64,000 nucleotides of DNA from Bacteroidales bacterium (GTDB lineage: Bacteria; Bacteroidota; Bacteroidia; Bacteroidales; UBA12077). Every line of letters starts with the position of its first letter. Position 1 is the stretch's first letter. Under the pieces are notes generated by a model. That model was not told where the DNA came from, ran no database searches, and saw only the letters and a list, made by a program, of their open reading frames with translations. The stretch is from positions 20,626-84,625 of the forward strand of contig JANQHR010000049.1 in NCBI GenBank assembly GCA_028282585.1, read 5' to 3'. Made by a program: the position numbers and the translations under genes. Below, one piece after another: positions 37,191 to 55,409 of this stretch.

Positions 37191-37197
37191 ATGCAAA

Positions 37198-39205: not shown

Positions 39206-41035
39206 ATGAAAGAAAACATTAAAATAGGCAATGCTGGAGGGTTCTGGGGAGATGACCTGGACGCATTTAGGCGCCAGCTAATTGGTGGTGAATTAGATTA
39301 CATTGTTGCAGATTACCTTGCCGAGATCACAATGAGCATTTTACGAAAGCAAAATATCAAGAACCCACAATTAGGTTATGTTACGGATTTTGTCAACCAG
39401 GTGTTAGAAAATGCTGAGTTGATCGTACAAAAAAAAGTCAAGGTAATTACCAATGCAGGAGGCATAAACCCTTATGAATGCGCAAAGAAAATAGCCAGGG
39501 GCCTTGAAGAAAAGAATCTCAATTTAAAAATATGCATTATTGATGGAGATAATATTTACGATGAAATTAGTAGGCTTTATTTAAATACTTCATCGTTTAA
39601 AAACATAGAAACAGGAGAAAGTTTTGAACTTATAAAAGATAAAATTGAAAGTGCCAATGTATATTTAGGTATAATGCCGATTGTTAAAGCCCTTGAAAAA
39701 GAAGCCGATATAATTATTGCTGGCCGGGTAACAGATACTTCATTAGCCATGGCACCTGCATTTTACGAATTTGGGTGGGAAGAAAATGACTGGGACAAAA
39801 TAGCATCATCGTTGGTTGCAGGGCACATAATAGAATGTGGTGCACAAAGCTCAGGAGGAAACTATACCGATTGGCATAAAATCACAAAATGGGATAATTT
39901 CGGGTATCCCATTATAAATATTTTTCAGGATGGAACGTTCGAAGTTACCAAACACCCGGAAACTGGTGGATTAATTAACACCGATGTTGTAAAAGAACAA
40001 TTACTTTACGAAATGGGCAACCCGGGCCATTATATTAGCCCCGATGTTGTTGTTGATTTTACAACGGTTAAGCTTGAACCTAACGGAAATGATTGTGTGA
40101 AAGTTTCCGGGATAAAAGGAAAAGGGCCAACTACATCTTTTAAAGTGTCTATGTCTTACCGCGATGGTTTTAAAACGTCAGGTTCAATCATTGTTTCAGG
40201 GCCTAAGGCTTTAGAAAAAGCTCAAAAAATAAAATCCTTTTTTTGGAAACGTTTGGGTACTGAATTCGAAAAATCAAATACTGAATTTATTGGCTACAAT
40301 TCATGCCATGGAGAATTAGCACCTCCTATTAGCCCCAATGAGGTTCTTTTAAGGTTTAGTGTTTTTGATACGAACAGAACTAAAATTGAAGAATTTTCAA
40401 AGAATATTGCACCGGTTATTTTAAGTGCCCCTCCAGGAGTAGCTGTTACAGGCGGGAGGCCTTTTATACATAACGTTATGGCATATTGGCCTGCCTTAAT
40501 TGATAAAAAAGATGTAAAGGCTATTGTTCGAATTATTGGTAAAAATGAAGAAATCGAAGAATCGATTGAAATACCCTCAACCACTGGGTTTGAAAAGGAT
40601 ATTCCAACGATATCACGTGCCGGAATACAGGTTAGTACCGGCAAATACGAAAATTCTAAAATCAATTTACCTCAAAATGATTGGATAAAAACTAAGCTCT
40701 ATGAAATATGTTTAGCCCGGTCAGGTGATAAAGGCAATATGGCAAACATTGGAGTAATAGCCAGAAACAAAGATATTTATGACTTTATATCAGAACATAT
40801 TACTGCTGATTATGTTAAAAATATGTTTAAGCATGTTTGCAAAGGAAAAGTAACCAGGTACAAACTTGATAACCTGTTATCGCTTAACTTTCTGCTTGAT
40901 GAATCGCTTGATGGCGGCGGAACAAAATCTCTCATGATTGATGCACAAGGAAAAACACTTGCATCTGCTTTTTTAAATCAAGAAATAAATATACCAACGG
41001 AGCTTTCAAATACAGTTAAAGACAGTTCCGGGTGA
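39206..41035 (+). CDS. Acyclic terpene utilization AtuA family protein
   Basis: GFWGD, DYLAEITM, NAGGINP, GRVTD, AGHIIECGAQ.SGGN, KEQLLYE, ARSGDKG, DAQGK. Confidence 0.88.
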   Translation: MKENIKIGNAGGFWGDDLDAFRRQLIGGELDYIVADYLAEITMSILRKQNIKNPQLGYVTDFVNQVLENAELIVQKKVKVITNAGGINPYECAKKIARGLEEKNLNLKICIIDGDNIYDEISRLYLNTSSFKNIETGESFELIKDKIESANVYLGIMPIVKALEKEADIIIAGRVTDTSLAMAPAFYEFGWEENDWDKIASSLVAGHIIECGAQSSGGNYTDWHKITKWDNFGYPIINIFQDGTFEVTKHPETGGLINTDVVKEQLLYEMGNPGHYISPDVVVDFTTVKLEPNGNDCVKVSGIKGKGPTTSFKVSMSYRDGFKTSGSIIVSGPKALEKAQKIKSFFWKRLGTEFEKSNTEFIGYNSCHGELAPPISPNEVLLRFSVFDTNRTKIEEFSKNIAPVILSAPPGVAVTGGRPFIHNVMAYWPALIDKKDVKAIVRIIGKNEEIEESIEIPSTTGFEKDIPTISRAGIQVSTGKYENSKINLPQNDWIKTKLYEICLARSGDKGNMANIGVIARNKDIYDFISEHITADYVKNMFKHVCKGKVTRYKLDNLLSLNFLLDESLDGGGTKSLMIDAQGKTLASAFLNQEINIPTELSNTVKDSSG

Positions 41036-41064
41036 AATCAGGAACCGTATAAAAACAATGCTAT

Positions 41065-42207
41065 ATGTTTATTCAAGAAGAACAAAAACTAGTTCGTAAA
41101 ACCGCACGAGACTTTGCCGAAAGGGTTATAAAACCAGTTGCACAAAAATTAGATGAAGAGGAGAAGTTTGATGTTGGCATCGTTCGGCAAATGGGAGAAT
41201 TAGGTTTTTTTGGGATGGTGATACCAGAAAAATATGGAGGGAAAGGAATGAGTTCTCTTTCCTACATTATTGCTGTTGAGGAAATATCAAGAGTTGATGG
41301 TTCGCATGCTGCTACCGTTGCGGCTCATAATTCCTTGGGCATACGGCCTATTTATAATTTTGGCACCGAAAGCCAACGATGCAAATATATACCGCCACTT
41401 GCCAAAGGCAAAGGTTTATGGGCTTTTGGCTTAACAGAGCCCGAAGCAGGTTCAGACTCACGAGGGACAAAAACAACTGCCAAATTTGAAAATGGAAAAT
41501 GGATTTTAAATGGTTCAAAGATCTTTATAACAAATGGCTCTACTCCTATTACGAATGGCGTGACCGTTCAAGCAGTAACCGGAGAAGACAACGAGGGCAA
41601 AAAAGTATTCACTACATTTCTGCTGGATTCAGGAACAAAAGGTTTTACAGCAAAAGCAATGAAAAACAAGTTGATGTGGAGAGCTTCTGACACTTCAGAA
41701 TTATTTTTTTACGATTGTGAAATTCCGGAAGAAAACCTACTGGGAAAAATTGGTGAAGGTTCCAAAATAATGCTTAAAACCTTAGATTCAGGCCGGTTAT
41801 CAATTGCTGCAATGGGCTTAGGTTGTGCACAAGGTGCTTATGAAGAAGCTCTTAATTATGCTAAAATTCGCAAGCAGTTCGGAAAACCGATCTCAAAATT
41901 CCAGGTAAATTCGTTCAAATTAGCCGATATGTATGTAAAAATTGAACTAGCCAGAAGTTATTTATACCGGGCCTGCTGGCTAAAAGACCATAAGCAGCCG
42001 TTTGGAGTTGAGTCAGCCATAGCCAAGTTGTACTGCTCAGAGGTGGCAAAAGAAGTAACAGATGAAGCAGTACAAATACATGGTGGTTACGGTTTAATTA
42101 AAGATTATCCTGTTGAACGGTTTTACCGCGACCAGAGGTTATTAAGAATTGGAGAAGGAACCTCAGAAATACAAAGGTTAGTTATCTCCAGGCATATTGG
42201 TTGTTAA
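41065..42207 (+). CDS. Acyl-CoA dehydrogenase
   Basis: GLTEPEAGSD, NGSKIFITNG, R.QFGKPI, QIHGGYG, IGEGTSEIQR. Confidence 0.93.
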   Translation: MFIQEEQKLVRKTARDFAERVIKPVAQKLDEEEKFDVGIVRQMGELGFFGMVIPEKYGGKGMSSLSYIIAVEEISRVDGSHAATVAAHNSLGIRPIYNFGTESQRCKYIPPLAKGKGLWAFGLTEPEAGSDSRGTKTTAKFENGKWILNGSKIFITNGSTPITNGVTVQAVTGEDNEGKKVFTTFLLDSGTKGFTAKAMKNKLMWRASDTSELFFYDCEIPEENLLGKIGEGSKIMLKTLDSGRLSIAAMGLGCAQGAYEEALNYAKIRKQFGKPISKFQVNSFKLADMYVKIELARSYLYRACWLKDHKQPFGVESAIAKLYCSEVAKEVTDEAVQIHGGYGLIKDYPVERFYRDQRLLRIGEGTSEIQRLVISRHIGC

Positions 42208-42280
42208 TATTTGCCTGTTTCCATAAAATAAATCACGGCGGTATTGATAAATATCATTCGTAATTTCATTCTTAAAACCT

Positions 42281-42288
42281 TATATTTG
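42281..42288 (+). promoter_or_regulatory. Bacteroidota -7 element upstream of the hydroxyproline locus
   Basis: TATATTTG about 180 nt upstream of the activase ATG. Confidence 0.5.
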
Positions 42289-42467
42289 TATCAATTAGGT
42301 TTGATATGAATCCTTTCTGTTCAAATATCTTATACCACGATTTTGGCAAAGGCCTTTACGAGTGCTGGATTTGCTAAGCCTTCCCATTTTATTGTTTACA
42401 ATTTAAATTCATGGGATGATTGTATTCCGATGAATCATTTCTTATACTTTAAATTATTACAATCAAG

Positions 42468-43262
42468 ATGGAAGCTACAATTTTCGATATTAAACATTTT
42501 GCTGTGCACGATGGCCCGGGAATAAGGCAAACTGTATTTTTCAAAGGCTGCCCTTTAAAATGTTGGTGGTGCCATAACCCGGAAAGCCAGAGTAAAAATA
42601 TTGAATCCTTTACAAGAATTAATAGGCTTGATGGCAAAGAATTTAAAAAAGAGTCTCCTATTGGATATTCTATAACTATTGATGATTTATTTAAAACCAT
42701 TCAGGGCGATAAAATATTTTTTGAAGAATCCGGAGGGGGTGTTACTTTTTCAGGTGGTGAACCATTAATGCAAGCAGACTTTTTGTATGAAATCACAAAG
42801 CTTTGTAAAGAGAATGGAATTCACACCTGTATTGACACATCGGGATTTGCACCGGAAGAAACACTGCAAAAAATTGCAAAAATTGCAGATTGTTTTCTAT
42901 ATGACCTAAAAATTGTAGATAATTATTTACATTATAATTACACAAATACTCCGGTATTTGATATTATCTCAAACCTAAATTGGTTAGACCAAAATAATAA
43001 AAACGTTATTCTAAGGTTTCCTTTAATACCAGGAATAACTGACTCCCGGCAAAACCTTTCCGAAGTTAAATTATTTATTAAATCGCTTAAAAACATTCAT
43101 CAAATTGATATTTTACCATATCATGATATTGCCAATAGCAAATACAATAGGTTTAATAAAGAAAATTTAATGAAAGGTTCCGGCCTTATTCCAGAGGAGC
43201 AAATATCACATATTAAATCAGAATTTGAATCATTAGGGTTTAAGGTGGGTATTGGAGGATAA
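42468..43262 (+). CDS. Glycyl-radical enzyme activating enzyme (radical SAM)
   Basis: HDGPGIR, KGCPLKCWWCHNPES, GGVTFSGGEP, LPYH; adjacent to the GRE. Confidence 0.93.
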   Translation: MEATIFDIKHFAVHDGPGIRQTVFFKGCPLKCWWCHNPESQSKNIESFTRINRLDGKEFKKESPIGYSITIDDLFKTIQGDKIFFEESGGGVTFSGGEPLMQADFLYEITKLCKENGIHTCIDTSGFAPEETLQKIAKIADCFLYDLKIVDNYLHYNYTNTPVFDIISNLNWLDQNNKNVILRFPLIPGITDSRQNLSEVKLFIKSLKNIHQIDILPYHDIANSKYNRFNKENLMKGSGLIPEEQISHIKSEFESLGFKVGIGG

Positions 43263-43316
43263 ACAAATAAAATTCCTGCTGGTGTAGGAATCTTAAAAAA
43301 ATTAAAATAGATAATC

Positions 43317-45680
43317 ATGAATTCACGAATAAAAAACTTAAGAGGCGAAAGCTTAATGGCAACAAATACATTATCTCCGGAAAGAGCCATTTTGCTGACT
43401 AAATTTTATAAAAATGAAATGGGTGATAAATCATCCATACCGGTAAAACGAGCTAAAGCCTTTAAATATATATTGGAAAATAAAAAGATCTGCATAAACC
43501 AAAATGAATTAATTGTTGGAGAACGTGGGCCTGTAGCTAAAGCCACACCAACATACCCCGAAGTAAGCTTGCATTCGTTAAAAGATTTGGAAATCCTTGA
43601 TACCAGGCCAAAAGTTTGGTTTAAAGTCGATGATGAAACCAAAAAAGTTTATGAAAACGATATCATACCTTTCTGGAAAGGCAATACGCAACGCGATAAA
43701 ATGTTTGGATTATTGCCTGATGAATGGAAAGCAGCGTATGAGGCAGGTATTTTTACCGAATTTCAAGAGCAGAGGGCACCAGGGCATACAGTTGCAGGCA
43801 AAAAGATTTTTCAAAAAGGAATGTTGGATTTAAAGAAAGAAATTAAGGATTCAATAGAAAAATTTAAAACATCAAATGGCCCGGAAGCTCAAGGCAAAAT
43901 TGAAGAACTAAAGGCAATGGATATTGCAGCAGATGCTATTATAACTTTTGCGCACAGGCATACAATGGCTTTAATTAGCTTAGCTGAAGTTGAAGAAAAT
44001 GAAGGGCGAAAGGCCGAGTTAATTAAGATGGCAAGAGTTTGCCGAAAAGTTCCGGCGAATGCACCCGAAACATTTCATGAAATGCTTCAACATTATTGGT
44101 TCATTCATTTGGGGGTAATAACTGAAGTAAACCCATGGGATTCATTTAATCCTGGCCGTTTAGACCAGCATTTGTACCCATTTTATAAACAAGAAATTGA
44201 AAATGGAACGTTAACAAAAGAATCAGCAATTGAGTTATTACAGGCTTTTTGGGTAAAATTTAATAACCACCCGTCTCCACCTAAAATGGGAGTAACAGCC
44301 TTGGAAAGCAATACCTATACTGATTTTTCATTGATTAATTTGGGCGGGTTAAAAGAAGATGGTACGGATGCTGTAAATGAACTAACCTATATCTTACTTG
44401 ATGTAATTGAAGAAATGAGAATCCTTCAACCAAGCTCCATGGTGCAGCTAAGTAAAAAGAACCCGGATAAATTTATACAGCGTGCTATTCAAATTACAAA
44501 AACCGGCTTTGGGCAGCCATCCATATTTAATACAGATGCAATTATTAAGGAATTGGTTAATCAAGGAAAAGACATTATTGACGCTCGAAATGGCGGCGCC
44601 AGTGGATGTGTGGAAACGGGTGCTTTTGGAACCGAAAGCTACATTTTAACCGGGTATTTCAATTTAAACAAGATACTTGAAATAACTCTTTACAACGGAA
44701 CTGACCCACGAACAGGAAAAGAAATTGGGTTAAAAACAGGCAACCCAAGAAATTTCCAAACTATTGATGAACTTTTAGAAGCTTATAAAAAGCAACTAAA
44801 TTATTTTGCTTATATCAAATTGAAAGGTAATAACATAATTGAAAAGCTTTATGCAGAGAAATTGCCTGTTCCATTCTTATCTCTCATCATTGAGGATTGT
44901 ATTTCAAATGGGATTGATTATAATGCTGGAGGTGCGCGTTATAATACCAGTTATGTTCAAGGAGTTGGGTTAGGCAGCGTTACTGATAACCTGGCCTCAA
45001 TAAAGTATAATGTTTTTGATAAGAAAAAAGTAAGTCTGGATGAACTGTTAAATGCATTGAATGCCAACTTTGAAGGATTTGAACAACTTCGCCATGATTT
45101 GGTTTATGAAACCCCAAAATATGGCAACGACGATGATTATGCAGACCAGCATTCGGTGTTTGTTTTCAATACGTTTTATGATGCTGTTAATGGAAAGCCG
45201 ACATACCGCGGAGGCAAGTATAGAATAAATATGTTGCCTACAACAAGCCATGTTTACTTTGGAAGCGTTATGAAAGCTACACCGGATGGGCGCAAAGAAT
45301 TTGAACCTCTATCTGAAGGGATAAGCCCATTTCAGGGTGCAGATAAAAAAGGGCCCACAGCTGTTTTAAAATCAGCTGCAAAAATTGACCATATAAAAAC
45401 TGGTGGAACTTTGTTGAATCAAAAATTTTCTCCATCCTTTTTTAAAGATGAAGAAAGCATTGAAAAATTATCCTACCTGGTAAGAAGTTATTTTAGAATG
45501 GAGGGGCACCATATCCAGTTTAATGTGGTTAATGCAAAAACTTTACGCGATGCTCAAAAACATCCTGAAAAATATACAGATTTAATTGTTCGTGTTGCAG
45601 GTTACAGCGATTATTTCAATGACCTTGGAGAAGGGCTACAAAATGAGATCATCCGAAGAACAGAACATGAAGAAATATAA
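43317..45680 (+). CDS. hypD: Glycyl-radical enzyme, trans-4-hydroxy-L-proline dehydratase
   Basis: VRVAGYS glycyl loop, SGCVE Cys loop, and HypD-type motifs EF.EQRAPGH, PWD, SNTYTDF, LTGYFN, MLPTT; 787 aa. Confidence 0.85.
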   Translation: MNSRIKNLRGESLMATNTLSPERAILLTKFYKNEMGDKSSIPVKRAKAFKYILENKKICINQNELIVGERGPVAKATPTYPEVSLHSLKDLEILDTRPKVWFKVDDETKKVYENDIIPFWKGNTQRDKMFGLLPDEWKAAYEAGIFTEFQEQRAPGHTVAGKKIFQKGMLDLKKEIKDSIEKFKTSNGPEAQGKIEELKAMDIAADAIITFAHRHTMALISLAEVEENEGRKAELIKMARVCRKVPANAPETFHEMLQHYWFIHLGVITEVNPWDSFNPGRLDQHLYPFYKQEIENGTLTKESAIELLQAFWVKFNNHPSPPKMGVTALESNTYTDFSLINLGGLKEDGTDAVNELTYILLDVIEEMRILQPSSMVQLSKKNPDKFIQRAIQITKTGFGQPSIFNTDAIIKELVNQGKDIIDARNGGASGCVETGAFGTESYILTGYFNLNKILEITLYNGTDPRTGKEIGLKTGNPRNFQTIDELLEAYKKQLNYFAYIKLKGNNIIEKLYAEKLPVPFLSLIIEDCISNGIDYNAGGARYNTSYVQGVGLGSVTDNLASIKYNVFDKKKVSLDELLNALNANFEGFEQLRHDLVYETPKYGNDDDYADQHSVFVFNTFYDAVNGKPTYRGGKYRINMLPTTSHVYFGSVMKATPDGRKEFEPLSEGISPFQGADKKGPTAVLKSAAKIDHIKTGGTLLNQKFSPSFFKDEESIEKLSYLVRSYFRMEGHHIQFNVVNAKTLRDAQKHPEKYTDLIVRVAGYSDYFNDLGEGLQNEIIRRTEHEEI

Positions 45681-45773
45681 TTAGTTACAAATTAAAGATT
45701 TCAAATTTTACGTTCACTTAAATTTTGAATTTGAAACCTGGAATTTAAAATATATTAATATCAATCATCAACC

Positions 45774-48056
45774 ATGAGAAAAATATATTCAATCATCTTA
45801 ATTACCTGTGCTTTATCTAAAATTATACTAGCTCAAGGAACACTTGAAGACTATCAAAGAGCGGAAAAGTTTTTGCATTTTAATGTTTACAATTTGGTTC
45901 AGAACCTTTATTTAAATGCCAACTGGATTGATAAATCAAGCAATTTCTGGTATAAAACGGAATTGGAAAACGGGCATCGTTTTATACTTGTTTTACCTGA
46001 AAAAAATGAAGTTAAACCTGCATTTAGCCATCAGAAATTAGCTGAACTGCTGGAAAACAAACTTAATGAAAAAATGAATCCTGACTCTCTCCCATTTTCT
46101 AAAATTAAGTTCAAAGACGAAATGAAAACCATCCTTTTTAAGGTTGATACGCTAAACTTTAAGTATGAGATAAAGAAAAACGAGCTTTCCATATATACAC
46201 CAAAAAAGGATGAACTAAAAAAGAATGAATCAAAATCACCAGATGGAAAATGGATTGCATTTGTTAAAGATTATAACCTTTACTTAAGAGACACAAAATC
46301 TAAGGAAGAATTCCAATTAACCTTTGATGGAATGGACAGGTATGATTATGCTTCTCCTATTTCCTGGTATAAAACTGTTGATGAATCCAAAGGAGATACA
46401 TACGATCCTGAAATATGGGTTAAATGGTCGCCTAACTCAAAAAAGTTTGTTGCAACCAAGTTAGATAGAAGGAACGCAAAAAAACTATATATGTACCAGT
46501 CTCTTCCTGATAGCGGAATGCGGGCAAAAGTATGGTCCTACGAAAGAGCATTGCCAGGAGAAGATTTACCGTTGCAAGAATATTATATTTTTGATGTTGA
46601 AACAAAAACAAATGTAAAAGCCAACCTAGAGCCTTTAGAAGACTTGTGGGCTGGATTTACACCAAACTGGGCTGAGGATAGTAAAACATTCTATTTTGCT
46701 CAAATGGCAAGGTACTACAAAGCTCTTGGTTTATATTTTATTGACTCTGAAACAGGAACTGTTAGAAATATTATCCATGAAGATGCAAACACCATGATTG
46801 AATATCAAATGGTAGGTTGCAAACTCATCAATAATGGAGAAAAAGTAGTTTGGATGTCGGAACGTGATGGATGGAGCCATTTGTATTTGTATGACGGAAA
46901 GACTGGTGAATTAATAAACCAGGTTACAAAAGGTGAATTTGTTGTACGAGAAATAAATTTTATAGATGAGAAAAATGAAATAATATATTTTACTGCTGGA
47001 GGAGTTGAAAAAGGCCGTGACCCCTATTATAAACATCTATACAAAATAAACTATGATGGTTCTGGAATGGAATTATTAACTCCTGAAGATGCTGAACATG
47101 AAATTCAATTCTCTCCAGATTATAAGTATTTTATCGATAATTATTCCCGGGTTGATTTAAAACCAAAAGCAGTTTTAAGAAGGTTATCAGATGGCAAATT
47201 AATAAAGGAATTACAAGAATCTAACATTGATAAATTAATCGCAACCGGTTGGAAATATCCTGAAAGGTTTACAGTTAAAGCCCGTGATGGCAAAACAGGC
47301 CTTTATGGAATTTTACAATATCCATCTACCTTTAACCCTAGAAAGAAATATCCTATAATTAACAACTCCTATTCTGGCCCTCAGGCAGTTAATGTTCCAA
47401 AATCATTCCGCCGTGGAATATGGAATGACTGGGCACCATTAGCTGAAGTTGGTTTTCTGGTTATGCGCATTGACGGTATGGGAACTGCCATGCGTTCAAA
47501 AGCATTTCATGACGTTTCGTACAAAAATTTGGGCGATATTGGTGGGCCTGACCATATAGCCGGGATAAGGCAATTGGCCGAAAGGTACGAGTATATTGAT
47601 ACTACAAAAATTGGAATATTTGGGTTTTCGGCAGGAGGTTATGATGCAGCTCGTGCAATATTGAAATACCCTGCCTTTTACAAGGTAGCTGTGGCATCCG
47701 CTGGAAATCACGACCACAGAATGGCTAAAGCGTGGTGGCCAGAGCAATATATGGGTGAACCCGGCAACCACTATATAGAACAATCCAATTTAACTTTAGC
47801 TAAGAATTTAAAAGGAAAGCTTTTACTCATACATGGCGATATGGATAATAACGTTAATCCTGCATCGTCATATAGATTAGCAGCTGAATTGGTGAAAAAC
47901 AACAAAGATTTTGATTTAATAATCATCCCAAACGCCAATCACGACTTAACATGGAGGAGTAAATATGCAACTCGAAGGCGTATGGATTATTTTGTAGAAC
48001 ACCTTTGGGGTATTAAACCTCCGAAAGAATTTGAATTCAAAGAGTATAAAAAGTGA
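45774..48056 (+). CDS. Exported S9B dipeptidyl-peptidase IV family peptidase
   Basis: Signal peptide, beta-propeller (SPDGKWIAF, SERDGW.HLY), GFSAGG nucleophile, HGDMDNNV, NH catalytic His. Confidence 0.9.
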   Translation: MRKIYSIILITCALSKIILAQGTLEDYQRAEKFLHFNVYNLVQNLYLNANWIDKSSNFWYKTELENGHRFILVLPEKNEVKPAFSHQKLAELLENKLNEKMNPDSLPFSKIKFKDEMKTILFKVDTLNFKYEIKKNELSIYTPKKDELKKNESKSPDGKWIAFVKDYNLYLRDTKSKEEFQLTFDGMDRYDYASPISWYKTVDESKGDTYDPEIWVKWSPNSKKFVATKLDRRNAKKLYMYQSLPDSGMRAKVWSYERALPGEDLPLQEYYIFDVETKTNVKANLEPLEDLWAGFTPNWAEDSKTFYFAQMARYYKALGLYFIDSETGTVRNIIHEDANTMIEYQMVGCKLINNGEKVVWMSERDGWSHLYLYDGKTGELINQVTKGEFVVREINFIDEKNEIIYFTAGGVEKGRDPYYKHLYKINYDGSGMELLTPEDAEHEIQFSPDYKYFIDNYSRVDLKPKAVLRRLSDGKLIKELQESNIDKLIATGWKYPERFTVKARDGKTGLYGILQYPSTFNPRKKYPIINNSYSGPQAVNVPKSFRRGIWNDWAPLAEVGFLVMRIDGMGTAMRSKAFHDVSYKNLGDIGGPDHIAGIRQLAERYEYIDTTKIGIFGFSAGGYDAARAILKYPAFYKVAVASAGNHDHRMAKAWWPEQYMGEPGNHYIEQSNLTLAKNLKGKLLLIHGDMDNNVNPASSYRLAAELVKNNKDFDLIIIPNANHDLTWRSKYATRRRMDYFVEHLWGIKPPKEFEFKEYKK

Positions 48057-48194
48057 TCTAAAGTACTTAAAGTTAAGAGTTAAAAAATGTCATTCATTTT
48101 AGGCATTTTAGGCACTCAAGGCAATTATTAAATAAAGATAAAAATCACTAGATCCATTAAAGAAATTAATAATATTAAAATAAAAAGTAAAATT

Positions 48195-49586
48195 ATGTTC
48201 AGTAAAGAAACCTATATAAACAGGCGCAAACAATTAAAAGGGCAAATTGATTCCGGAATTCTTCTTTTTCTTGGAAACGAAGAAAGTTCAATGAATTATG
48301 CAGATAATACCTATAGGTTCAGGCAAGATAGTTCATTTCTTTATTATTTTGGCTTAGACTATCCTGGATTAGTAGGAATTATAGACGTTGACAATGATAA
48401 AGATTATATTTTCGGAGATGATTTAACCATTGACCATATTGTATGGATGGGTTCTCAACCCACAATTAAAGAAAGAAGTGAAAAAGCTGGTATCCAAAAC
48501 ACAGGCCAAATGGATGAAATGCTCGGTTTTTTGAAATCGGCTCAAGAAAAAAATAGAAAAATTCACTTTTTACCTGCATACCGCCCTGAGCATCAAATAA
48601 AGCTCCATAATTGGTTGGGTATTCCAATAAATGATACTCTTAAGCATTCTTCGATTTACATGATCGTTGCTGTCGGAGAACAAAGAAATATTAAATCAAC
48701 AGAAGAAATTGAACAACTGGAACAGGTTGTAAGTGTAACAGCTGATATGCATTTGGCAGCCATGAGGTTTGCCAAACCAGGCATGTCAGAAGCTCAAGTA
48801 GCAGCTAAAGTTCATGAAGTAGCACAAGCTGCTGGCGGAGATATATCATTCCCGATTATTGCAACCATAAATGGGCAAACCCTGCACAACCATTATCATG
48901 GAAATACAATAAAAGAAGGCGATTTATTTTTATTAGATGCAGGTGCTGAAAATAAACTAAGGTATGCTGGAGACATGTCAAGTACATTCCCTGTTTCACG
49001 AAGATTTACCGAAAAGCAAAAGGAGATTTACCAAATAGCATTAAATGCCCACGATTCGGCAATTGAAGCTTTAAAGCCAGGAGTAAATTTCAAACAAATT
49101 CACTTTACTGCTGCACGCACAATATTCGATGGGTTAAAGGAATTAGGGTTTACAAAAGGTAATACTGAAGAAGCAATTTATGAAGGGGCCCATGCCCTGT
49201 TCTTTCCATGTGGCACAGGCCATTTAATGGGTTTAGATGTTCACGACATGGAAAACCTTGGCGAACAATATGTTGGGTATGCAGGCGAACCTAAAAGCAC
49301 TCTATTCGGCTTAAAATCATTACGCTTAGGCCGTGAATTAAAACCTGGCTATGTATTAACTATCGAACCTGGAATTTACTTCATACCGGAATTAATCGAA
49401 CTTTGGAAATCTCAAAACAAATTCACTGAATTTATTAATTATGATAAGGTAGAAGAATATAAAGACTTTGGAGGTACTCGAAACGAAGAAGATATTTTAA
49501 TTACGGATGATGGTTATAAAATATTAGGTAAACCACTAGCTAAAACCATTAAAGAAGTGGAAATTGAACGTGCAAAAGCATTTTAA
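48195..49586 (+). CDS. Xaa-Pro aminopeptidase (M24B, aminopeptidase P)
   Basis: FRQDSSFLY, LDAG...YAGD, GHLMGLDVHD, TIEPGIYF, GG.R.EEDILIT. Confidence 0.92.
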   Translation: MFSKETYINRRKQLKGQIDSGILLFLGNEESSMNYADNTYRFRQDSSFLYYFGLDYPGLVGIIDVDNDKDYIFGDDLTIDHIVWMGSQPTIKERSEKAGIQNTGQMDEMLGFLKSAQEKNRKIHFLPAYRPEHQIKLHNWLGIPINDTLKHSSIYMIVAVGEQRNIKSTEEIEQLEQVVSVTADMHLAAMRFAKPGMSEAQVAAKVHEVAQAAGGDISFPIIATINGQTLHNHYHGNTIKEGDLFLLDAGAENKLRYAGDMSSTFPVSRRFTEKQKEIYQIALNAHDSAIEALKPGVNFKQIHFTAARTIFDGLKELGFTKGNTEEAIYEGAHALFFPCGTGHLMGLDVHDMENLGEQYVGYAGEPKSTLFGLKSLRLGRELKPGYVLTIEPGIYFIPELIELWKSQNKFTEFINYDKVEEYKDFGGTRNEEDILITDDGYKILGKPLAKTIKEVEIERAKAF

Positions 49587-49682
49587 AGAATTACCGGAAT
49601 AATGGAGTAATGAATTAGGTATCGTTTTTCCATAAATCCATTATTCCATTTATCTTTACCATTAAAATTAATCTTTTTTAAA

Positions 49683-50645
49683 ATGTTAGTTATAAGCGAA
49701 CAAGATATAATAAATGCTGTTGAGCCAATTGAATACATTAGTGCTATCGAAAAAGCATATGTAATTCAGGATAAAGCAACTACAAATATCCCTAACAGGA
49801 TGCACATTGATAATGATGAAAATACTTTATTGGTAATGCCAGGATTTATCGAAAGCGTATTCGGAACAAAGCTGGTTTCATTGTTTCCTAAAAATCTTGA
49901 AAAAGAAGAACCTGTTTTAAAAGGTGTAATGGTATTAAATGATGCTGGCACAGGCAAACCGTTAGCAATAATTAATGGAAATAAACTAACAGCTATGAGA
50001 ACAGGAGCTGTTGGTGCAACAGCTGTTAAATACCTTGCCCCTTTTGATTCAAAAACCTTAGGAATTATTGGAGCTGGAGTACAAGCATACCACCAAGCAC
50101 TGTTGATAAGCACTGTCAGGCCTTTTCAAAAGATAATAATCTGCGACAAAAACCTTAGCAAAGCAGAAGTTTTAAAAAGCGGTTTACAAGAAAGATTAGG
50201 GAATATTGGAATTACAGCTACCAATGATTCTAACCAAACTATATTAGGTTCGGATGTTATTGTAACTGCTACCTCATCATATAAACCGGTATTTAATACC
50301 AACATTGAGAATCTTGAGAAAAAATACTTTTTTGCTATTGGTTCATATAAACCCGATATGCAAGAAGTTCCTTTACCGGTTTATGAAAAACTTGATAAGG
50401 TATATGTTGATACATTGCATGCCAAAGAAGAATGTGGCGATATAAAAATTCCGCTTGAAAAAGGTATGATAAAAGATGAAGATGTAATTCCTTTTAGTTC
50501 AGTTTTGACAAGTGGAGAGTTACTTGAACAATCATCTTTATGTTTGTTTAAATCTGTGGGTATGTCCTTGTTTGACTTAACCGTTGCAGAGTTAATTTAT
50601 AATAGTGCTAAAGAAAAAGGCTTGGGGCAAGAAGTAAAAATTTAA
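49683..50645 (+). CDS. Ornithine cyclodeaminase/mu-crystallin family imine reductase (candidate pyrroline-2-carboxylate reductase)
   Basis: MPG, KLVS.FP, LTAMRTGA, GAGVQA, AIGSY.P, FKSVG; lies next to the 3-Hyp dehydratase. Confidence 0.85.
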   Translation: MLVISEQDIINAVEPIEYISAIEKAYVIQDKATTNIPNRMHIDNDENTLLVMPGFIESVFGTKLVSLFPKNLEKEEPVLKGVMVLNDAGTGKPLAIINGNKLTAMRTGAVGATAVKYLAPFDSKTLGIIGAGVQAYHQALLISTVRPFQKIIICDKNLSKAEVLKSGLQERLGNIGITATNDSNQTILGSDVIVTATSSYKPVFNTNIENLEKKYFFAIGSYKPDMQEVPLPVYEKLDKVYVDTLHAKEECGDIKIPLEKGMIKDEDVIPFSSVLTSGELLEQSSLCLFKSVGMSLFDLTVAELIYNSAKEKGLGQEVKI

Positions 50646-50671
50646 ACACACCTTAACTTGATGAATGTAAA

Positions 50672-50727
50672 TGTCATGCTGAGCCTGTCGAAGTATGGCA
50701 TCACTCTTCGACAAGCTCAGAGTGACA
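50672..50727. repeat. REP-like paired inverted repeat
   Basis: TGTCATGCTGAGCCTGTCGAAG ... CTTCGACAAGCTCAGAGTGACA, an imperfect 22-bp IR of a type common between Bacteroidota genes. Confidence 0.75.
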
Positions 50728-50739
50728 ATATTTATAAAT

Positions 50740-51783
50740 GTGAACAAAATACTTAAAAACTGGAAATGGAGCCCTCCAGAAAGCTGGTTGAAAATCAAAA
50801 CCATTGACCTGCATACTGGAGGCGAACCTTTGCGAGTATACACGAATGGATTGCCTCATATTCAAGGCAAAACAATTCTGGAAAAAAGAAGGTATTTTCG
50901 GGATAATTTTGATTTTATCAGAACAGGCACAATGTTCGAGCCCCGGGGGCACGCAGATATGTATGGAGCAATTATTACTGAACCTACCACGAAAGATGCA
51001 GATTTTGGGGCTTTCTTTTTACACAATGAAGGTTACAGCACTATGTGTGGCCACGCTATAATTGCTTTAACAAAATTGGTTTTAGATACTGGCATGATAA
51101 CAAAGAATGGCGAGGAACCTGAATTAGTAATTAATGCACCTCCCGGTAAAATATTTGCTAAAGCTTTTCGCAAAAACGGACTTGTTGCGAGAATTAGTTT
51201 TAAAAACGTACCTTCATTTTTGTATTTAAAAGATAAAACCATTGATGTGCCTGAAATAGGTAGAGTAAAGTTCGATGTTGCTTTTGGAGGTGCTTTTTAC
51301 GCTTTTTGCGATGCTGATGAGTTGGGGTTGAAAATAGATGAATCAGATTATAACCGCTTAATCGATTATGGGAAAAAAATAAAATATGCTGTAATGGAAA
51401 ATTACGAAATCAAGCACCCTTTCGAAGAAGACTTAAGCTTTTTATACGGAACCATTTTCACAGGAAAGGCATATAACTTAAACCACCACAGCCGAAATGC
51501 GTGTATCTTTGCTGAAGGCGAAGTTGACCGTTCCCCTACAGGCTCAGGAGTTAGTGCCAGGGCAGCATTGCATTACGCAAAAGGAGAGTTAAACACAAAT
51601 GAAAAAATCACCATAGAAAGTATCTTAGGCACAACAATGGATGTTGAAATAATAGATCAAACAAATTTTGGGCCTCACCAGGCTATAATACCGGAAGTTA
51701 CGGGAAATGCCTTTATTACAGGGCAGAATGAATTTTATTTTGACCCTAACGACCCTTTAAAAAAAGGTTTTATCTTTAGGTGA
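50740..51783 (+). CDS. Proline racemase family protein, Cys/Thr type (trans-3-hydroxy-L-proline dehydratase)
   Basis: HTGGEP, EPRGHADMYG, STMCGH (Cys), DRSPTGSG (Thr in place of the second Cys). Likely GTG start at 50740, downstream of the repeat. Confidence 0.82.
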   Translation: MNKILKNWKWSPPESWLKIKTIDLHTGGEPLRVYTNGLPHIQGKTILEKRRYFRDNFDFIRTGTMFEPRGHADMYGAIITEPTTKDADFGAFFLHNEGYSTMCGHAIIALTKLVLDTGMITKNGEEPELVINAPPGKIFAKAFRKNGLVARISFKNVPSFLYLKDKTIDVPEIGRVKFDVAFGGAFYAFCDADELGLKIDESDYNRLIDYGKKIKYAVMENYEIKHPFEEDLSFLYGTIFTGKAYNLNHHSRNACIFAEGEVDRSPTGSGVSARAALHYAKGELNTNEKITIESILGTTMDVEIIDQTNFGPHQAIIPEVTGNAFITGQNEFYFDPNDPLKKGFIFR

Positions 51784-51938
51784 TTTCTAATTTTTTACAA
51801 TTAAGGATACGTTTCATACGTTAATTAAAACCTGATGGCTACAAACAGAAAAGATAGAAAAATAAATAACTCGTTTATCTAAATCCTGTGCATCAAGTTA
51901 AATGAAAAAGGTTAAACATATAAAAAAACAACAAAACC

Positions 51939-53579
51939 ATGTTAAGTAAAGTATTATCAATTTTATTAATCCTGGCTTTGGGATTTCAATTAAATTCAAA
52001 AGCTTGTACCGTTATTGCTGTTGGTAAAAAAGCATCTGCAGATGGCTCAAATATAATTTCACATACCGACACTGGCCCGGATTCCAGGATATTTGTAGTT
52101 CCTGCCCAAACTTTTAAACCGGGCTCTAAAGCTCCTGTTTATTGGGGGATTCAAGACGCGAGCCTCCCTTTAAAAGATGATGGCGAGATATTGGGGTATA
52201 TCCCACAAGTTGAAAAAACATTTAAATATTTTCATTCTGCCTATTCTCAGGTAAACGAACATCAATTGGGAATTGCAGAAAGCACAACAGCTCAAAGAAA
52301 AGAATTAATCTGTATGAAAGGCGAAGGCAAACAGATTATGTCCATTGAACAAGCGCAAATATTTGCCTTGCAACGTTATAAAACAGCCCGTGAAGCCGTT
52401 CAGTTTATTGGAGATTTAATGACAAAGTATGGGTTTATACCTTCTAGTGGAGATGGGTCTGAATGTTTAGTTATCGCAGATACCGAAGAAATATGGGTTT
52501 TTGAAGTATTTGGAGTTGGGCATGGATGGGAACCTGAAAGTGGAAAGCCTGGTGCAATATGGGCTGCACAGCGTTTACCAGAGGATGAAACAACCATGGT
52601 ACCCAACTGGAGCATTATAAAAGAAATTAATGCTGAGGATAAGGAAAATTTCATGGTTTCTGAGAATTATATGCAAGAAGCAATTGAGCGCGGTTGGTAC
52701 GACCCAAATTCAGGAGAACCATTCATCTGGCAAGAAATTTATGCACCACCGAGTACAGTAGAATATGCTACAAGCCGTTTTTGGTTATTCCACCAAACTT
52801 TTGCCCCAAATTTGAAAGAATGGCCTAATAGGTTCCCTGAAGGCAATCCATATAAAGGCATTCAGCCTTACTTTCAATATGTTGAACCCCTGTCAATTTA
52901 TCCATTCTCGGTTAAGCCTGAGAAAAAGATGTCTGTTCAGGATGTGATCGCTTTTCAACGTTCAACTTATGAAGGGACAATTTATGACATGACATATGAC
53001 CCAAACTGGTTGGTTCCAAACGGAGAAGGTGGTTATGAAAAAAGCCCTTTAGCCACACCATTTCCAGGCAGCGATTTGAGAAAATTATTAAAAATAACTT
53101 ACCGGCGCCCGGTTGCACGCCACAGAGGGCATTATGGAATGGTGCTTCAGTTGCGTGATTGGTTACCAAATGAAATTGGCGGAGTTTACTGGGTATATTT
53201 GGATAATCCTTATTTTAGCCCTTATGTTCCAATTTATACGGGTAATTTATCAACCCACGAATCGTATCAAATTTATGACCCAAATAAATATAGTGAAAAA
53301 TCAGCAAGGTGGGCAATTGACTTTGTTGATAATTTAGCCAACCTTAAATTTCAGGAGATTGCAAAAGATGTAAAAGAAGTACGGGCCCCTTTTGAAGCTA
53401 AAATGTTCGAAAACCAAAAAGCTATAGAGGATGAAGCTTTAAAACTTTACAAAAAAGCTCCCGAAAAGGCCCAAGAATATTTAACAAATTACTCTAATGG
53501 GCTAATGAACGATGTTACAGAAATGTTTCTGGAGTTAAGAAATCAGATTATCACTGATTATACAAATAATCACGAGTAG
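51939..53579 (+). CDS. Exported C69 family dipeptidase
   Basis: Signal peptide ending in A-CT (N-terminal nucleophile Cys), VGKKASADGS, NEHQLGIAEST, EIWVFE, WAAQR. Confidence 0.88.
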   Translation: MLSKVLSILLILALGFQLNSKACTVIAVGKKASADGSNIISHTDTGPDSRIFVVPAQTFKPGSKAPVYWGIQDASLPLKDDGEILGYIPQVEKTFKYFHSAYSQVNEHQLGIAESTTAQRKELICMKGEGKQIMSIEQAQIFALQRYKTAREAVQFIGDLMTKYGFIPSSGDGSECLVIADTEEIWVFEVFGVGHGWEPESGKPGAIWAAQRLPEDETTMVPNWSIIKEINAEDKENFMVSENYMQEAIERGWYDPNSGEPFIWQEIYAPPSTVEYATSRFWLFHQTFAPNLKEWPNRFPEGNPYKGIQPYFQYVEPLSIYPFSVKPEKKMSVQDVIAFQRSTYEGTIYDMTYDPNWLVPNGEGGYEKSPLATPFPGSDLRKLLKITYRRPVARHRGHYGMVLQLRDWLPNEIGGVYWVYLDNPYFSPYVPIYTGNLSTHESYQIYDPNKYSEKSARWAIDFVDNLANLKFQEIAKDVKEVRAPFEAKMFENQKAIEDEALKLYKKAPEKAQEYLTNYSNGLMNDVTEMFLELRNQIITDYTNNHE

Positions 53580-53677
53580 AAATAAGATAATAATTATTCC
53601 GGGATCCTGCTTTCAGTAAGCATGGTATCTCGGATTTTTATTTTTTCTTATTCGTAAGAATATGAGATAAGACTAAT

Positions 53678-54796
53678 TTATAGCAGAATATTATTAACAT
53701 ATTCTCCTATCGCTAAGGAAGACGTCAAACCTGGCGATTCGATTCCAATTAAGTTTACGAATCCGGGAAACCCTTTTTTTAATTCTTCCTGAACATAAAA
53801 ATCTTGAATGGCCTCGCCCTGTTTTTGGATTTTTGGCCGTATGCCTGCCATTTCCGGAACTAAATCATTCAATTCTAAAAACGGCAAAAACTTCTTAGCT
53901 GATTCATAAAAAGCTTTTTGCTGTAATTTATTCACCGAATAATCATAAATATTATCAGGCATCCATTCTACATCTGGGCCCAGCTTTACTCCTCCTCCCA
54001 TATCAATGGTAACATGTATTCCAATTCCCTCCATATTGGGGTTTGGAACAGGATATACCAACCTATTTAACAATTTATTTTTTGGAGGGTTTACCCTAAA
54101 ATAATTTCCTTTGCAAAATGAAAGTTTTAGTGATTCGTTATCCATTCCAACCATGCCAGAAACTTTATCTGATTCCAGGCCGGCGGCATTTACTACCTTT
54201 TTTGTTTTAAAAGAAAAGTCTTTTCCGTCAGAATCTTTTAATAAAATTTCATACCCATTTTCAATTTTATTAACTTCTATTAATTCAGCTCCATATGAGA
54301 ATTGAACACCTTGATTTATAGCATTTGTTTCCAATTGTTTCATAAAGAAATGCGAGTCTATAACCCCCGTTGATGGTGAAAAAAGCGCTCCATAACAATC
54401 AATATTTGGCTCTAATTCCTTTATCTCACCTTCATTTAAAAGGCGTAAATCTTTAACTCCATTATGAAAAGCTTTCTTTTTTAATTCTTCAAGCAACATT
54501 ACCTCTTCGGTTGATGTTGCTACAATTAATTTTCCACAATTATTATAAGGAACTTCATACTCTTTACAGAAGTTATATAACAAATACTTACCCTCAACAC
54601 AAAGTTTTGCCTTTAAACTATTTTTGGGATAGTAAATTCCTGCATGGATTACTTCACTGTTACGGCTACTCGTTTCCTGCCCAAAAGATTTATTTCTTTC
54701 AATAACAAATACATCGGTATAATCTTCCGAAAGTTTTGCCGCAATGGCTAAACCAACTACTCCGGCACCTATAATTGCAATATTTGAATCAAACAT
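53678..54796 (-). CDS. FAD-dependent oxidoreductase, L-2-hydroxyglutarate oxidase (LhgO) family
   Basis: GAGVVG, ETSSRNSEVIHAGIYY, LVYPVP, GIHVT, AGIRPK, GIESPGLTSS. Confidence 0.88.
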   Translation of the reverse strand: MFDSNIAIIGAGVVGLAIAAKLSEDYTDVFVIERNKSFGQETSSRNSEVIHAGIYYPKNSLKAKLCVEGKYLLYNFCKEYEVPYNNCGKLIVATSTEEVMLLEELKKKAFHNGVKDLRLLNEGEIKELEPNIDCYGALFSPSTGVIDSHFFMKQLETNAINQGVQFSYGAELIEVNKIENGYEILLKDSDGKDFSFKTKKVVNAAGLESDKVSGMVGMDNESLKLSFCKGNYFRVNPPKNKLLNRLVYPVPNPNMEGIGIHVTIDMGGGVKLGPDVEWMPDNIYDYSVNKLQQKAFYESAKKFLPFLELNDLVPEMAGIRPKIQKQGEAIQDFYVQEELKKGFPGFVNLIGIESPGLTSSLAIGEYVNNILL

Positions 54797-54908
54797 AGTA
54801 TCTTAAATCTCATGTAAACATACTAAGAATTTTACTTTACTTGAAGCAAAAAAGGTGCGCAAACATGTAATTTGTACACCTTACATTTTAAAATAAATAA
54901 ATTATTTA

Positions 54909-55409
54909 TTATGCTATTTGCTCTTTATACTTAACCTGCATCTTTTTAACTCCTTTATAAAATTCGGGGAATCTTTTCCATAAATCCTTTTCGCATGAGT
55001 TTAATTCGCCACACTGAATACAAGAATCAAAGCCCTTCTCAATTGCACACGCTCGAACAGTACAATTTGAAACTACCATCCCTTGTGGCTTTTCTTGGTT
55101 TTTACAACGCCAACAAATGGCAATTTTGGTATCAAACTCTATACCATACCGTTCTTTTAATTTCCATACATCAAATGCTTCCTTTTTCTTAGTGTCATCG
55201 CCTTCAACAGTTGCTATATAAAACTTGCAATCTTCAGGGCATGTATAGCCACAGTAATTTAATTTCTCAGGGTCAATCTTTTCATCAACAAACATTTTAG
55301 AAAATGAGCCTGCAGCAACGAATTTAGAACTCATTAACATTGCACAACAAGCCATACCAGCTTGCGTACTCTTTTTGAAGAAATTTCTTCTATTCATCTT
55401 ATTTTTCAT
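54909..55409 (-). CDS. Cys-rich DUF3795-like protein with twin-arginine signal
   Basis: NRRNFFKK Tat motif, then YCG..C...C, C..C, C.VR.C...KG...C..C....C. Confidence 0.7.
   Translation of the reverse strand: MKNKMNRRNFFKKSTQAGMACCAMLMSSKFVAAGSFSKMFVDEKIDPEKLNYCGYTCPEDCKFYIATVEGDDTKKKEAFDVWKLKERYGIEFDTKIAICWRCKNQEKPQGMVVSNCTVRACAIEKGFDSCIQCGELNSCEKDLWKRFPEFYKGVKKMQVKYKEQIA

Follow-up and report, generated by a model that had tools for sequence, protein, structure and literature searches.

A locus of a Bacteroidales bacterium, lying in a 64,000-nt stretch of contig JANQHR010000049.1 (the window; all coordinates are positions in this full stretch, with strands as read there), encodes the glycyl radical enzyme HypD next to peptidases and to enzymes for a second isomer of hydroxyproline (Hyp), and raises the question of whether these genes share one task and what might coordinate them. 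The initial annotation had read seven genes here as a single locus that dismantles Pro/Hyp-rich peptides and handles both trans-4-Hyp (4-Hyp) and trans-3-Hyp (3-Hyp). The synteny of related genomes and a small leader open reading frame (ORF) common to this and other operons support that reading at the level of sequence. It is probable that the seven genes form one operon with which an anaerobic bacterium uses Pro/Hyp-rich peptides, e.g., collagen fragments, and that a conserved leader belongs to it. All the enzymes belong to families already known, and what appears to be new is their fusion in one operon, together with its leader ORF.

Enzymes of the probable seven-gene operon

An ORF listing gives seven + strand genes at exactly the coordinates of the initial annotation, separated by gaps of 54, 93, 138, 96, 49 and 155 nt, in which no + strand terminator is predicted. 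Family assignments were made by Pfam and NCBIfam profile searches, closest solved relatives were sought by searches against PDB chains, and the families named earlier for the activase, HypD, the ornithine cyclodeaminase (OCD)-family protein, the Cys/Thr racemase homolog and the C69 protein each passed a sequence-level test.

42468..43262, + strand: glycyl-radical activating enzyme, short form, 264 aa (NF043069, TIGR02494)
43317..45680, + strand: trans-4-hydroxy-L-proline dehydratase HypD, 787 aa (NF043068, PDB 6vxc and residues)
45774..48056, + strand: predicted exported S9B prolyl di- or tri-peptidyl peptidase, 760 aa (DPPIV_N and Peptidase_S9)
48195..49586, + strand: predicted cytoplasmic M24B Xaa-Pro peptidase, prolidase-like, 463 aa (AMP_N and Peptidase_M24)
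49683..50645, + strand: OCD/mu-crystallin protein, probable delta1-pyrroline-2-carboxylate (Pyr2C) reductase, 320 aa (PF02423, 6t3e, triad positions)
50695..51783, + strand: Cys/Thr racemase-family protein, predicted trans-3-hydroxyproline dehydratase (PF05544, 6r76, Cys/Thr pair)
51939..53579, + strand: predicted exported C69 dipeptidase of the N-terminal nucleophile (Ntn) type, 546 aa (PF03577)

The radical enzyme contains the PFL-like and Gly_radical domains of Pfam and scores 1239.7 bits against the HypD equivalog NF043068 (cut-off 1100). Its match to the C. difficile structure 6vxc reaches 1009 bits (E 1.3e-302), vs 478 for 8iof, 465 for 8id1 and 410 for 7vua (HplG), the other hydroxyproline-acting radical enzymes compared. 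The residues named in the available text on the C. difficile enzyme are Asp278, Asp339, His160, Phe340, Ser334, Tyr450 and Thr645, together with Cys434, Glu436, Phe152, Trp277, Arg156 and Lys326 (Backman et al., PMC7077986). All of these, and Gly765, are kept in the window protein (14/14), with the numbering shifted by -3, so that the glycyl radical residue is G762 in the motif RVAGYS and the CXE loop is C431-V-E433. By these tests the protein does not fall outside the HypD group, and its predicted identity as HypD stands. That it is instead HplG or one of the N-methyl-hydroxyproline lyases (8id1, 8iof), which share the fold and the CXE loop with HypD, is scarcely credible in view of the wide difference in scores, the equivalog cut-off passed, and the retention of the first seven residues listed above. 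The closest relatives of the window HypD are all from Bacteroidales metagenome-assembled genomes, at 80-86% identity.

The adjacent activase has the domain of a radical S-adenosylmethionine (radical-SAM) activase of glycyl radical enzymes, with CX3CX2C at C28/C32/C35, and passes TIGR02494 (260.2 bits; cut-off 174). Its match to NF043069 (283.7 bits) falls into two aligned stretches that skip ~35 of the 299 model positions; because of this gap, and because the protein has only six cysteines, three of them in CX3CX2C, it is taken to be without the ferredoxin-like insert. A more distant Bacteroidales genome (G170) carries a 309-aa activase with Fer4 domains, located after HypD in its operon (L108 8331-9260).

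The Cys/Thr racemase-family protein is the sole member of its family in the genome and matches PF05544 (Pro_racemase) with 355.7 bits. Its catalytic pair lies in MCGH at residue 117 (C118) and DRSPTG at residue 278 (T282), with Thr instead of the second Cys of the family. The best PDB match is 6r76 (449.6 bits, E 7e-134), which we take to be the T. litoralis dehydratase and in whose alignment DRSPTG is also found; the second solved relative is the human trans-3-Hyp dehydratase L3HYPDH (7qpo, 290.3 bits), and both precede the true racemases. The conserved Cys/Thr pair and the dehydratases as closest characterised relatives thus argue for the 3-Hyp dehydratase proposed in the initial annotation.

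The neighbouring OCD-family protein, the only one in the genome, matches PF02423 (OCD_Mu_crystall). Its best PDB match is the Pyr2C reductase of T. litoralis, 6t3e, at a modest 146.5 bits (E 9.3e-42), and the second is an archaeal alanine dehydrogenase. The triad of ornithine cyclodeaminase is E56-D228-K232 (P. putida numbering), the corresponding residues being L-V-A in TlLhpI and R-D-K in archaeal alanine dehydrogenase, according to the available text of Watanabe et al. (PMC4141209). The window protein has L50/Y222/M226 at these positions, as mapped through the 1omo and 6t3e alignments, and is therefore not a true ornithine cyclodeaminase. It resembles Pyr2C reductase in the missing triad, which fits the proposed reductase role. 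With 6t3e as the best match and the gene beside that of the dehydratase, the sequence evidence favours the earlier suggestion that this mu-crystallin-family protein reduces Pyr2C.

Three peptidases complete the operon, and for two of them the earlier names stood only in part. The S9 protein had been called an exported dipeptidyl peptidase IV (DPP-IV). The DPPIV_N and S9 domains and a signal-peptide-like N-terminus, judged by eye here as in the C69 protein, agree with this, but DPP-IV specificity does not follow, as 2d5l/2eep scores slightly higher than the named DPP-IV chain, B. thetaiotaomicron DPP4 (195.7 vs 176.5 bits). The former structures we take to be prolyl tripeptidyl peptidase of P. 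gingivalis. The motifs GFSAGG at 617, HGDMDNNV at 687 and NANHD near 722 presumably supply the Ser-Asp-His catalytic triad. The M24B protein, in which no signal peptide was seen, has the AMP_N and M24 domains expected of the aminopeptidase P first proposed, but as to subtype human prolidase (5m4g, 198.8 bits) is the nearer relative, ahead of the aminopeptidase P of E. coli (151 bits). The C69 protein matches PF03577 with 187.2 bits from residue 22, and its signal-like peptide stops just before Cys23; C69 dipeptidases use an Ntn mechanism with an N-terminal Cys nucleophile.

From these assignments a pathway can be proposed, in which activities and localisations are those predicted from the protein sequences. 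In the periplasm, the exported S9 prolyl peptidase and the exported C69 dipeptidase would trim Pro/Hyp-rich peptides, and in the cytoplasm the prolidase-like M24B enzyme would release imino acids from Xaa-Pro and Xaa-Hyp. HypD, activated by the short radical-SAM activase, would dehydrate trans-4-Hyp to delta1-pyrroline-5-carboxylate (P5C). The Cys/Thr racemase-family enzyme would dehydrate trans-3-Hyp to Pyr2C, which the OCD-family reductase would convert to L-proline.

Recurrence of the gene set and fate of its products

If the genes serve one pathway, how regularly do they occur together? Of 562 confirmed HypD matches, the loci of the best 80, all in other species, were searched with the window proteins; many of these loci end at contig edges (L and G numbers are handles for loci and genomes). 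An activase is present in 72/80. In the HypD flank and on the HypD strand, M24 is found in 23/80 loci, C69 in 17/80, the trans-3-Hyp dehydratase in 7/80 (L003, L004, L011, L014, L020, L026 and L028), S9 in 6/80 and OCD in 2/80 (L003 and L020). In the close clade (HypD at least 80% identical), the gene order is activase-HypD-[S9]-[M24]-[OCD]-[dehydratase]-[S37/S28 peptidase]-C69, where bracketed members are variable. The S37/S28 enzyme is an extra exported peptidase inserted in the relatives' loci, and C69 is the peptidase most identical to the window copy among close relatives. The synteny search that the initial annotation had suggested, for hypD with a Cys/Thr racemase gene and peptidases, thus found the same genes in the same order beside HypD in related genomes. 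The gene set of the operon is modular and recurrent, beyond a chance grouping.

A similar picture emerged from two genome samples. Among 25 genomes of the genus, own included, HypD occurs in 20/25, the dehydratase in 7/25, each time beside HypD, the OCD-family gene in 7/25, and all three together in 5/25 (G000, G008, G015, G016 and G018); every in-locus OCD copy in this sample adjoins the 3-Hyp dehydratase. In L020 15078-16137 (= G018:C98:17186-18155) the dehydratase gene is split in two frames with one stop inside the match, possibly by a frameshift or a sequencing error. The second sample was an even draw of 301 genomes of the order, of which 103 encode HypD, showing how common this enzyme is in anaerobes. 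A racemase-family gene occurs in 26/301, and 24 of these 26 genomes also have HypD, vs 79/275 of the genomes without a racemase-family gene; such co-occurrences are tendencies, not statistics, because kin are not independent. Of 27 racemase-family matches, 20 were read, and these comprised 17 Cys/Thr proteins (54-79% identity to the window protein) and three Cys/Cys proteins (35%). In 6/301 genomes (G000, G008, G107, G210, G236 and G245), no more than 6 kb separates the dehydratase from HypD, and many Cys/Thr genes adjoin M24, C69, S9 or OCD even with HypD on another contig. In the detached modules of G094 and G116, without HypD nearby, OCD again adjoins the dehydratase.

These distributions bear on the possibility that the neighbours have no common task, HypD and its activase being one unit, the peptidases housekeeping enzymes, and the clustering an accident of lineage. 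Gene content between HypD and C69 does differ among genomes, and HypD and the dehydratase lie on different contigs or far apart in 18/24 order genomes with both. Nevertheless, every peptidase family involved either is proline-directed or consists of dipeptidases, and these peptidases are again met next to HypD or the dehydratase across several families of the order; HypD shows the tendency to accompany racemase-family genes described above, and separate modules are each headed by the same leader ORF. An accidental clustering is highly unlikely on this evidence, and a shared role in the use of Pro/Hyp-rich peptides remains the preferred reading.

The fate of the products was approached through the gene content of the genome (98.35% complete, 3.89% contamination). 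In it there is no match to ProC (TIGR00112, PF14748) and none to ProB. The single aldehyde-dehydrogenase-family gene is lactaldehyde-dehydrogenase-like, and for this reason both ProA and a recognisable P5C dehydrogenase are considered to be missing. The genome does encode a true ornithine aminotransferase, which scores 698.6 bits (cut-off 378.4), and also a proline dehydrogenase of the monofunctional kind. ProC above cut-off is found in 0/25 genus genomes, 20 of which have HypD, vs 6/16 genomes from other families of the order. Three HypD genomes among these 16 (two above cut-off, one partial) have no ProC or a weak match to it. The absence of ProA, ProB and ProC looks like proline auxotrophy coupled to peptide feeding, and it means that P5C derived from 4-Hyp is not reducible to proline by the known enzyme, as it is in Clostridium. 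Because these three enzymes are absent, the most likely exit of P5C would be through ornithine aminotransferase (or the single aldehyde dehydrogenase). Where a lineage carries no genes for making proline, the HypD product would have to feed ornithine/glutamate metabolism, not Stickland reduction. Proline would re-enter the P5C pool through proline dehydrogenase, and we infer that 4-Hyp, 3-Hyp (via proline) and proline itself converge on P5C. Since ProC was not found and a genuine ornithine aminotransferase is present, a route from 4-Hyp via P5C and ornithine to proline by a true ornithine cyclodeaminase was considered as well; it was rejected on account of the missing E/D/K triad of the OCD-family protein.

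The same gene content gives some weight to a different role of the OCD-family protein in another imine or amino-acid reaction, e.g., as a substitute P5C reductase or an alanine-type dehydrogenase. With no ProC above cut-off in 25/25 genus genomes, a substitute P5C reductase would be sensible beside HypD. The second PDB match is an alanine dehydrogenase, an activity that the T. litoralis enzyme also shows as a side reaction, all NCBIfam scores of the protein are below their cut-offs, and the dehydratase occurs without OCD in some genomes. On the other side, the best PDB match is the characterised Pyr2C reductase 6t3e, and, like that enzyme, the window protein has hydrophobic residues at the triad positions where alanine dehydrogenase has R/D/K. 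The gene abuts the dehydratase gene in all five genus genomes with the three genes, in L003/L020 and in the G094 and G116 modules without HypD nearby, and the presence of OCD in just 2/80 HypD loci argues against a tie to the HypD product. A role other than Pyr2C reduction is therefore rather unlikely.

Several observations weigh against the pathway as drawn. The dehydratase scores 367.5 bits against NF045511 (cut-off 540), the best of six models, all of which remain below cut-off, and the OCD-family protein scores 175.7 against PRK06141 (cut-off 322) and 117.8 against NF045512 (cut-off 400). The dehydratase occurs without any OCD-family gene in G013 (94% complete) and G002 (71% complete), and five of the seven dehydratase-bearing loci in the 80-locus set have no OCD in the flank, so the reductase step does not always come from the OCD family. 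To these can be added that a recognisable P5C dehydrogenase was not found in the genome and that the seven-gene operon includes no transporter gene.

The leader ORF and its possible mechanism

What might coordinate these genes is suggested by the sequence upstream of the activase, where DNA alignment revealed a block conserved in all close loci that corresponds to an ORF of 23 codons. The elements of this region are as follows.

42281..42288, + strand: Bacteroidetes-type -7 promoter box TATATTTG, a TAnnTTTG match 17 nt before the leader ATG
42306..42377, + strand: leader small ORF, 23 codons and stop, MNPFCSNILYHDFGKGLYECWIC (from alignment and motif search of loci)
42378..42467, + strand: 90-nt spacer separating the leader stop from the activase start, C-rich at its beginning, GCCTTCCC... 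(predicted fold)

In a motif search, the leader ORF was found upstream of the activase in 65/68 loci with at least 300 nt of upstream sequence; the three loci missed were L018 (Clostridia), L068 and L015, the last of which carries a variant ending in ...RLFECWMW. The motif has 66 matches in 1.28 Mb of loci, all at the leader place, and one match in the bacterium's own 4.89 Mb genome, at the window operon. Two types grade into one another among 24 aligned peptides: type A ends in ...GKGLFECWIC, with a C-terminal CxxC, and type B reads ...RLGRRLYHCLMFY followed by 2-4 residues, with a single Cys. G14, L17 and C20 are invariant, and the N-terminus is variable. Variable sites at the first, second and third codon positions number 2/1/12 in type A (17 loci, last 15 codons) and 7/4/15 in type B (29 loci, last 17 codons). 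This third-position bias indicates that the peptide sequence is under selection.

A profile of the leader peptide gave 75 matches in 69 of the 301 order genomes, 65 of which have HypD. When positions were compared by hand, 58/75 matches lay at most 3 kb upstream of HypD on the same strand. Nine of the matches elsewhere were read; the other eight comprise five on different contigs where HypD starts at a contig edge and three weak ones. The genes that follow the nine leaders are listed here.

G116: M24-OCD-dehydratase-C69
G285: S9-M24-dehydratase-C69
G120 and G247: S9-M24-C69
G170: M24-S37/S28-C69
G170: SusC-SusD
G170: 2082-aa C1 protease of the type IX secretion system (T9SS) type, with a chagasin-like domain
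G028 (no HypD match): S9 alone
G180: activase gene cut by the contig end

The four leader copies of G170 (L106 433-531, L107 6922-7005 on the - strand, L108 446-544 and L108 5695-5784) head a SusC/SusD pair, the C1 protease, the M24-S37/S28-C69 set and a HypD-activase operon. This distribution of leader sequences points to a single regulon that would comprise HypD, the 3-Hyp module and proline-directed peptidases.

The surroundings of the ORF are also distinctive. TAnnTTTG is the consensus of the -7 box of Bacteroides promoters. It occurs at most 60 nt upstream of the leader ATG in 36/66 loci, mostly 17 nt away, and in 2% of background 60-nt windows; on the + strand, the box is missing from every other intergenic gap of the operon. 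The evidence lies in position, not count, as the motif is rarer over the whole window than in shuffles (70 vs 107.5). About 20 nt upstream of the box, a conserved ATCATTRG block is present in most type-A loci (42240-42262, + strand, in the window) and could be a -33 promoter element or an operator. A scan for sigma-70-type promoters and terminators, which does not cover Bacteroidetes promoters, gave counts at or below shuffle expectation, and an Rfam scan of 41000-56000 gave no family at gathering score. Downstream of the ORF, the first 60 nt or less after the leader stop average 24.3% C and 12.1% G, with C>G in 64/66 loci, vs 30/66 for upstream control stretches.

A conserved micro-protein might act in trans, e.g., as a metal-binding or accessory factor, rather than as a sensing leader in cis. 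Purifying selection acts on the peptide, one Cys is invariant, type A peptides have the C-terminal CxxC, and a helper is conceivable for a window activase without the usual auxiliary-cluster insert. Against such a role, the same ORF heads operons without activase or HypD, including S9-M24-C69, SusC/D, the C1 protease and, in a HypD-less genome, S9 alone, and the four G170 copies each head a different operon, the pattern expected of a cis element. Type B peptides have one Cys, and the promoter box upstream, mostly at 17 nt, and the C-rich, G-poor spacer downstream speak for a cis element as well. We consider the trans-acting protein unlikely, and the ORF is discussed below as a leader in cis.

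How a leader of this kind might act was sought in the spacer RNA. The region from leader stop to activase +11 (105 nt) has a predicted fold of -22.8 kcal/mol (z = -3.29 vs mononucleotide shuffles), and in the minimum free energy fold of the window spacer the post-stop segment is paired with the activase start region. Some members of the family have a post-stop box that pairs with the activase start codon, e.g., TAGCCTTTCAT with ATGAAAGGCT, and L047 and L074 have a compensating TAA...GGTT version of this pairing. Many type-B loci have a stable hairpin of non-homologous sequence after the leader stop; as these hairpins are not alignable, RNAalifold predicted 0 pairs for 21 type-B spacers, and for nine type-A spacers it predicted nothing beyond a 4-bp stem and a hairpin within the leader ORF. 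A translational switch was rejected as the general mechanism, as the pairing is convincing in 18/66 loci (at most 5/200 shuffles as good), weak in the window, and impossible where 570-640 nt separate the leader and the gene that follows. Since such a switch would be weak or impossible in many loci, transcription attenuation is preferred.

In the tnaC/speFL scheme, the nascent peptide, once bound to its ligand, makes the ribosome stall at the leader end and keeps Rho off the RNA. We infer a sensing leader of the TnaC/SpeFL kind, one that probably switches the downstream genes on; the scheme fits because the first ORF is short, the peptide is under selection in its C-terminal part, a C>G tract resembling a Rho utilisation (rut) site lies at the stop, and the spacer lengths (45 to ~640 nt) are compatible with it. 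An inducer (free Hyp, Pro or a Pro/Hyp dipeptide) would cause the nascent leader peptide to stall the ribosome at its end, and the stalled ribosome would cover the C-rich RNA after the stop, preventing premature, probably Rho-dependent, termination. In its full form the proposal is tentative, possible rather than probable: the leaders would form a family spread across the Bacteroidota, whose members, as nascent peptides in the ribosome, sense free Hyp (or a Pro/Hyp dipeptide) and, by blocking termination, turn on a whole regulon for collagen and Hyp peptides. This regulon would extend from a secreted protease and SusC/D uptake through prolyl exopeptidases and prolidase to the 3-Hyp module and HypD.

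Some findings count against this leader mechanism. The window spacer has 14 C vs 10 G in 90 nt, a weaker excess than in the family, and no canonical terminator is predicted in it. The window pairing of post-stop segment and activase start is weak (-9.3 kcal/mol, 26/200 shuffles as good). Among the 103 HypD-bearing order genomes, 38 have no leader match at E <= 0.01, and G028 and G180 have a strong leader match without a HypD match.

The genes around the operon are summarised next; G+C across the window is 30-39%, and the genome encodes T9SS-sorted and SusC-like proteins.

19432-29222, - strand: 2-oxoacid:ferredoxin oxidoreductase, aminotransferase, flavodoxin, sodium:solute symporter and ADP-forming acyl-coenzyme A (CoA) synthetase
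34759-42207, + strand: leucine/isovalerate-type cluster in the upstream flank, with carboxyltransferase, enoyl-CoA hydratase, biotin carboxylase, AtuA and acyl-CoA dehydrogenase (a methylcrotonyl-CoA-carboxylase-like set with AtuA and acyl-CoA dehydrogenase)
53678-54796, - strand: convergent flavin adenine dinucleotide (FAD) oxidoreductase in the downstream flank, 275.3 bits vs an L-2-hydroxyglutarate oxidase cut-off of 299; also found after C69 in L004
55693-62826, + strand: AprB, AprA, QmoA, QmoB and a QmoC-like Fer4_8 protein, adjoining the operon

A DUF3795 gene lies between the oxidoreductase and AprB. The amino-acid catabolism genes around the operon are consistent with a peptide-fermenting lifestyle. 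AprB/AprA/QmoA also adjoin the HypD locus in L002, L010, L011 and L023; a link of the AprBA-Qmo genes to sulfate respiration is unsupported, as a search for DsrA (TIGR02064) gave no match in the genome, which leaves an APS reductase-Qmo set with no dissimilatory sulfite reductase match beside it.

Comparison with known systems

The C. difficile HypD/HypD-AE/ProC locus (6vxc, 6vxe), as described in the available texts, shares with the window operon the enzyme family, 14/14 residues, an adjacent activase and the O2-sensitive conversion of trans-4-Hyp to P5C. It differs in that no proC lies beside the window operon or in the genome, hence no Stickland-type proline route; in that the window activase, with 264 aa, is without the ferredoxin-like insert; and in that the window operon runs on into peptidases and the 3-Hyp module. 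A leader ORF is a further difference, being absent from the single Clostridia locus examined (L018). The available part of Huang et al. (2018; PMC6219649) describes proC as a neighbour of hypD among Clostridiales, notes a dehydrogenase in certain species, and calls the enzymes that free Hyp from collagen and glycoproteins an open challenge; this part does not mention a racemase-family neighbour or 3-Hyp. The window locus and its relatives supply candidates for such Hyp-freeing enzymes, namely, the C69, S9, S37/S28 and prolidase-like M24B peptidases.

The counterpart of the 3-Hyp module is the LhpH and LhpI pathway of T. litoralis and Azospirillum (6r76, 6t3e), which likewise has adjacent genes of the Cys/Thr racemase and OCD families, the OCD triad being missing in both systems. 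LhpH and LhpI of T. litoralis are the best solved relatives of the window dehydratase and OCD-family protein. Unlike theirs, the window module is bacterial, mesophilic-looking and joined to a HypD operon and peptidases. The available text of Watanabe (2014; PMC4141209) reports an alanine dehydrogenase side activity in the T. litoralis Pyr2C reductase and 'putative PFL' (pyruvate formate-lyase) genes flanking LhpI, read as pyruvate-forming enzymes before HypD was known. In the neighbourhood network of the proline racemase superfamily, t3Hyp dehydratases of Bacilli adjoin OCD-family reductases, peptidases and transporters, as in part at the window locus; the available portion of that study, which predates HypD, mentions no glycyl radical enzyme or leader ORF (Zhao et al., 2014; PMC4113996). 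A 2026 review lists the known Hyp-acting radical enzymes and, in its available part, is silent on a peptidase or 3-Hyp context (PMC13450708). The initial annotation had stated that no description of the combined arrangement was known. A literature search of the main texts of openly available papers found no description of HypD together with the 3-Hyp module and peptidases, in agreement with that statement, which is qualified by the partial precedents of 'putative PFL' genes by LhpI (PMC4141209) and peptidases by t3Hyp dehydratases (PMC4113996), so far as the available texts go. Judged from their gene sequences, anaerobes appear to pair a radical 4-Hyp route with a non-radical 3-Hyp route.

The leader ORF with its putative regulon is the most novel element, with a mechanism that is proposed here. 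In the same literature search of openly available main texts, no leader peptide or arrest peptide was found that had been connected with hydroxyproline or with Bacteroidetes. The common leader ORF can serve as a sequence tag with which the remaining members of the regulon could be located in any genome of the Bacteroidota, and it is a candidate for a new ligand-sensing nascent peptide. If the proposal is true, it would be the first metabolite-sensing arrest peptide described in the phylum and the first known regulator of anaerobic hydroxyproline use, as far as the literature search shows. Its likeness to TnaC and SpeFL of E. coli consists of a short ORF heading a catabolic operon, conservation at the peptide level mainly in the C-terminal half, and a C-rich, G-poor spacer at the stop. 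It differs from them in having no sequence similarity to them and in belonging to a phylum without Shine-Dalgarno-led initiation. Finally, this type of leader heads several operons of one regulon, whereas tnaC does not.

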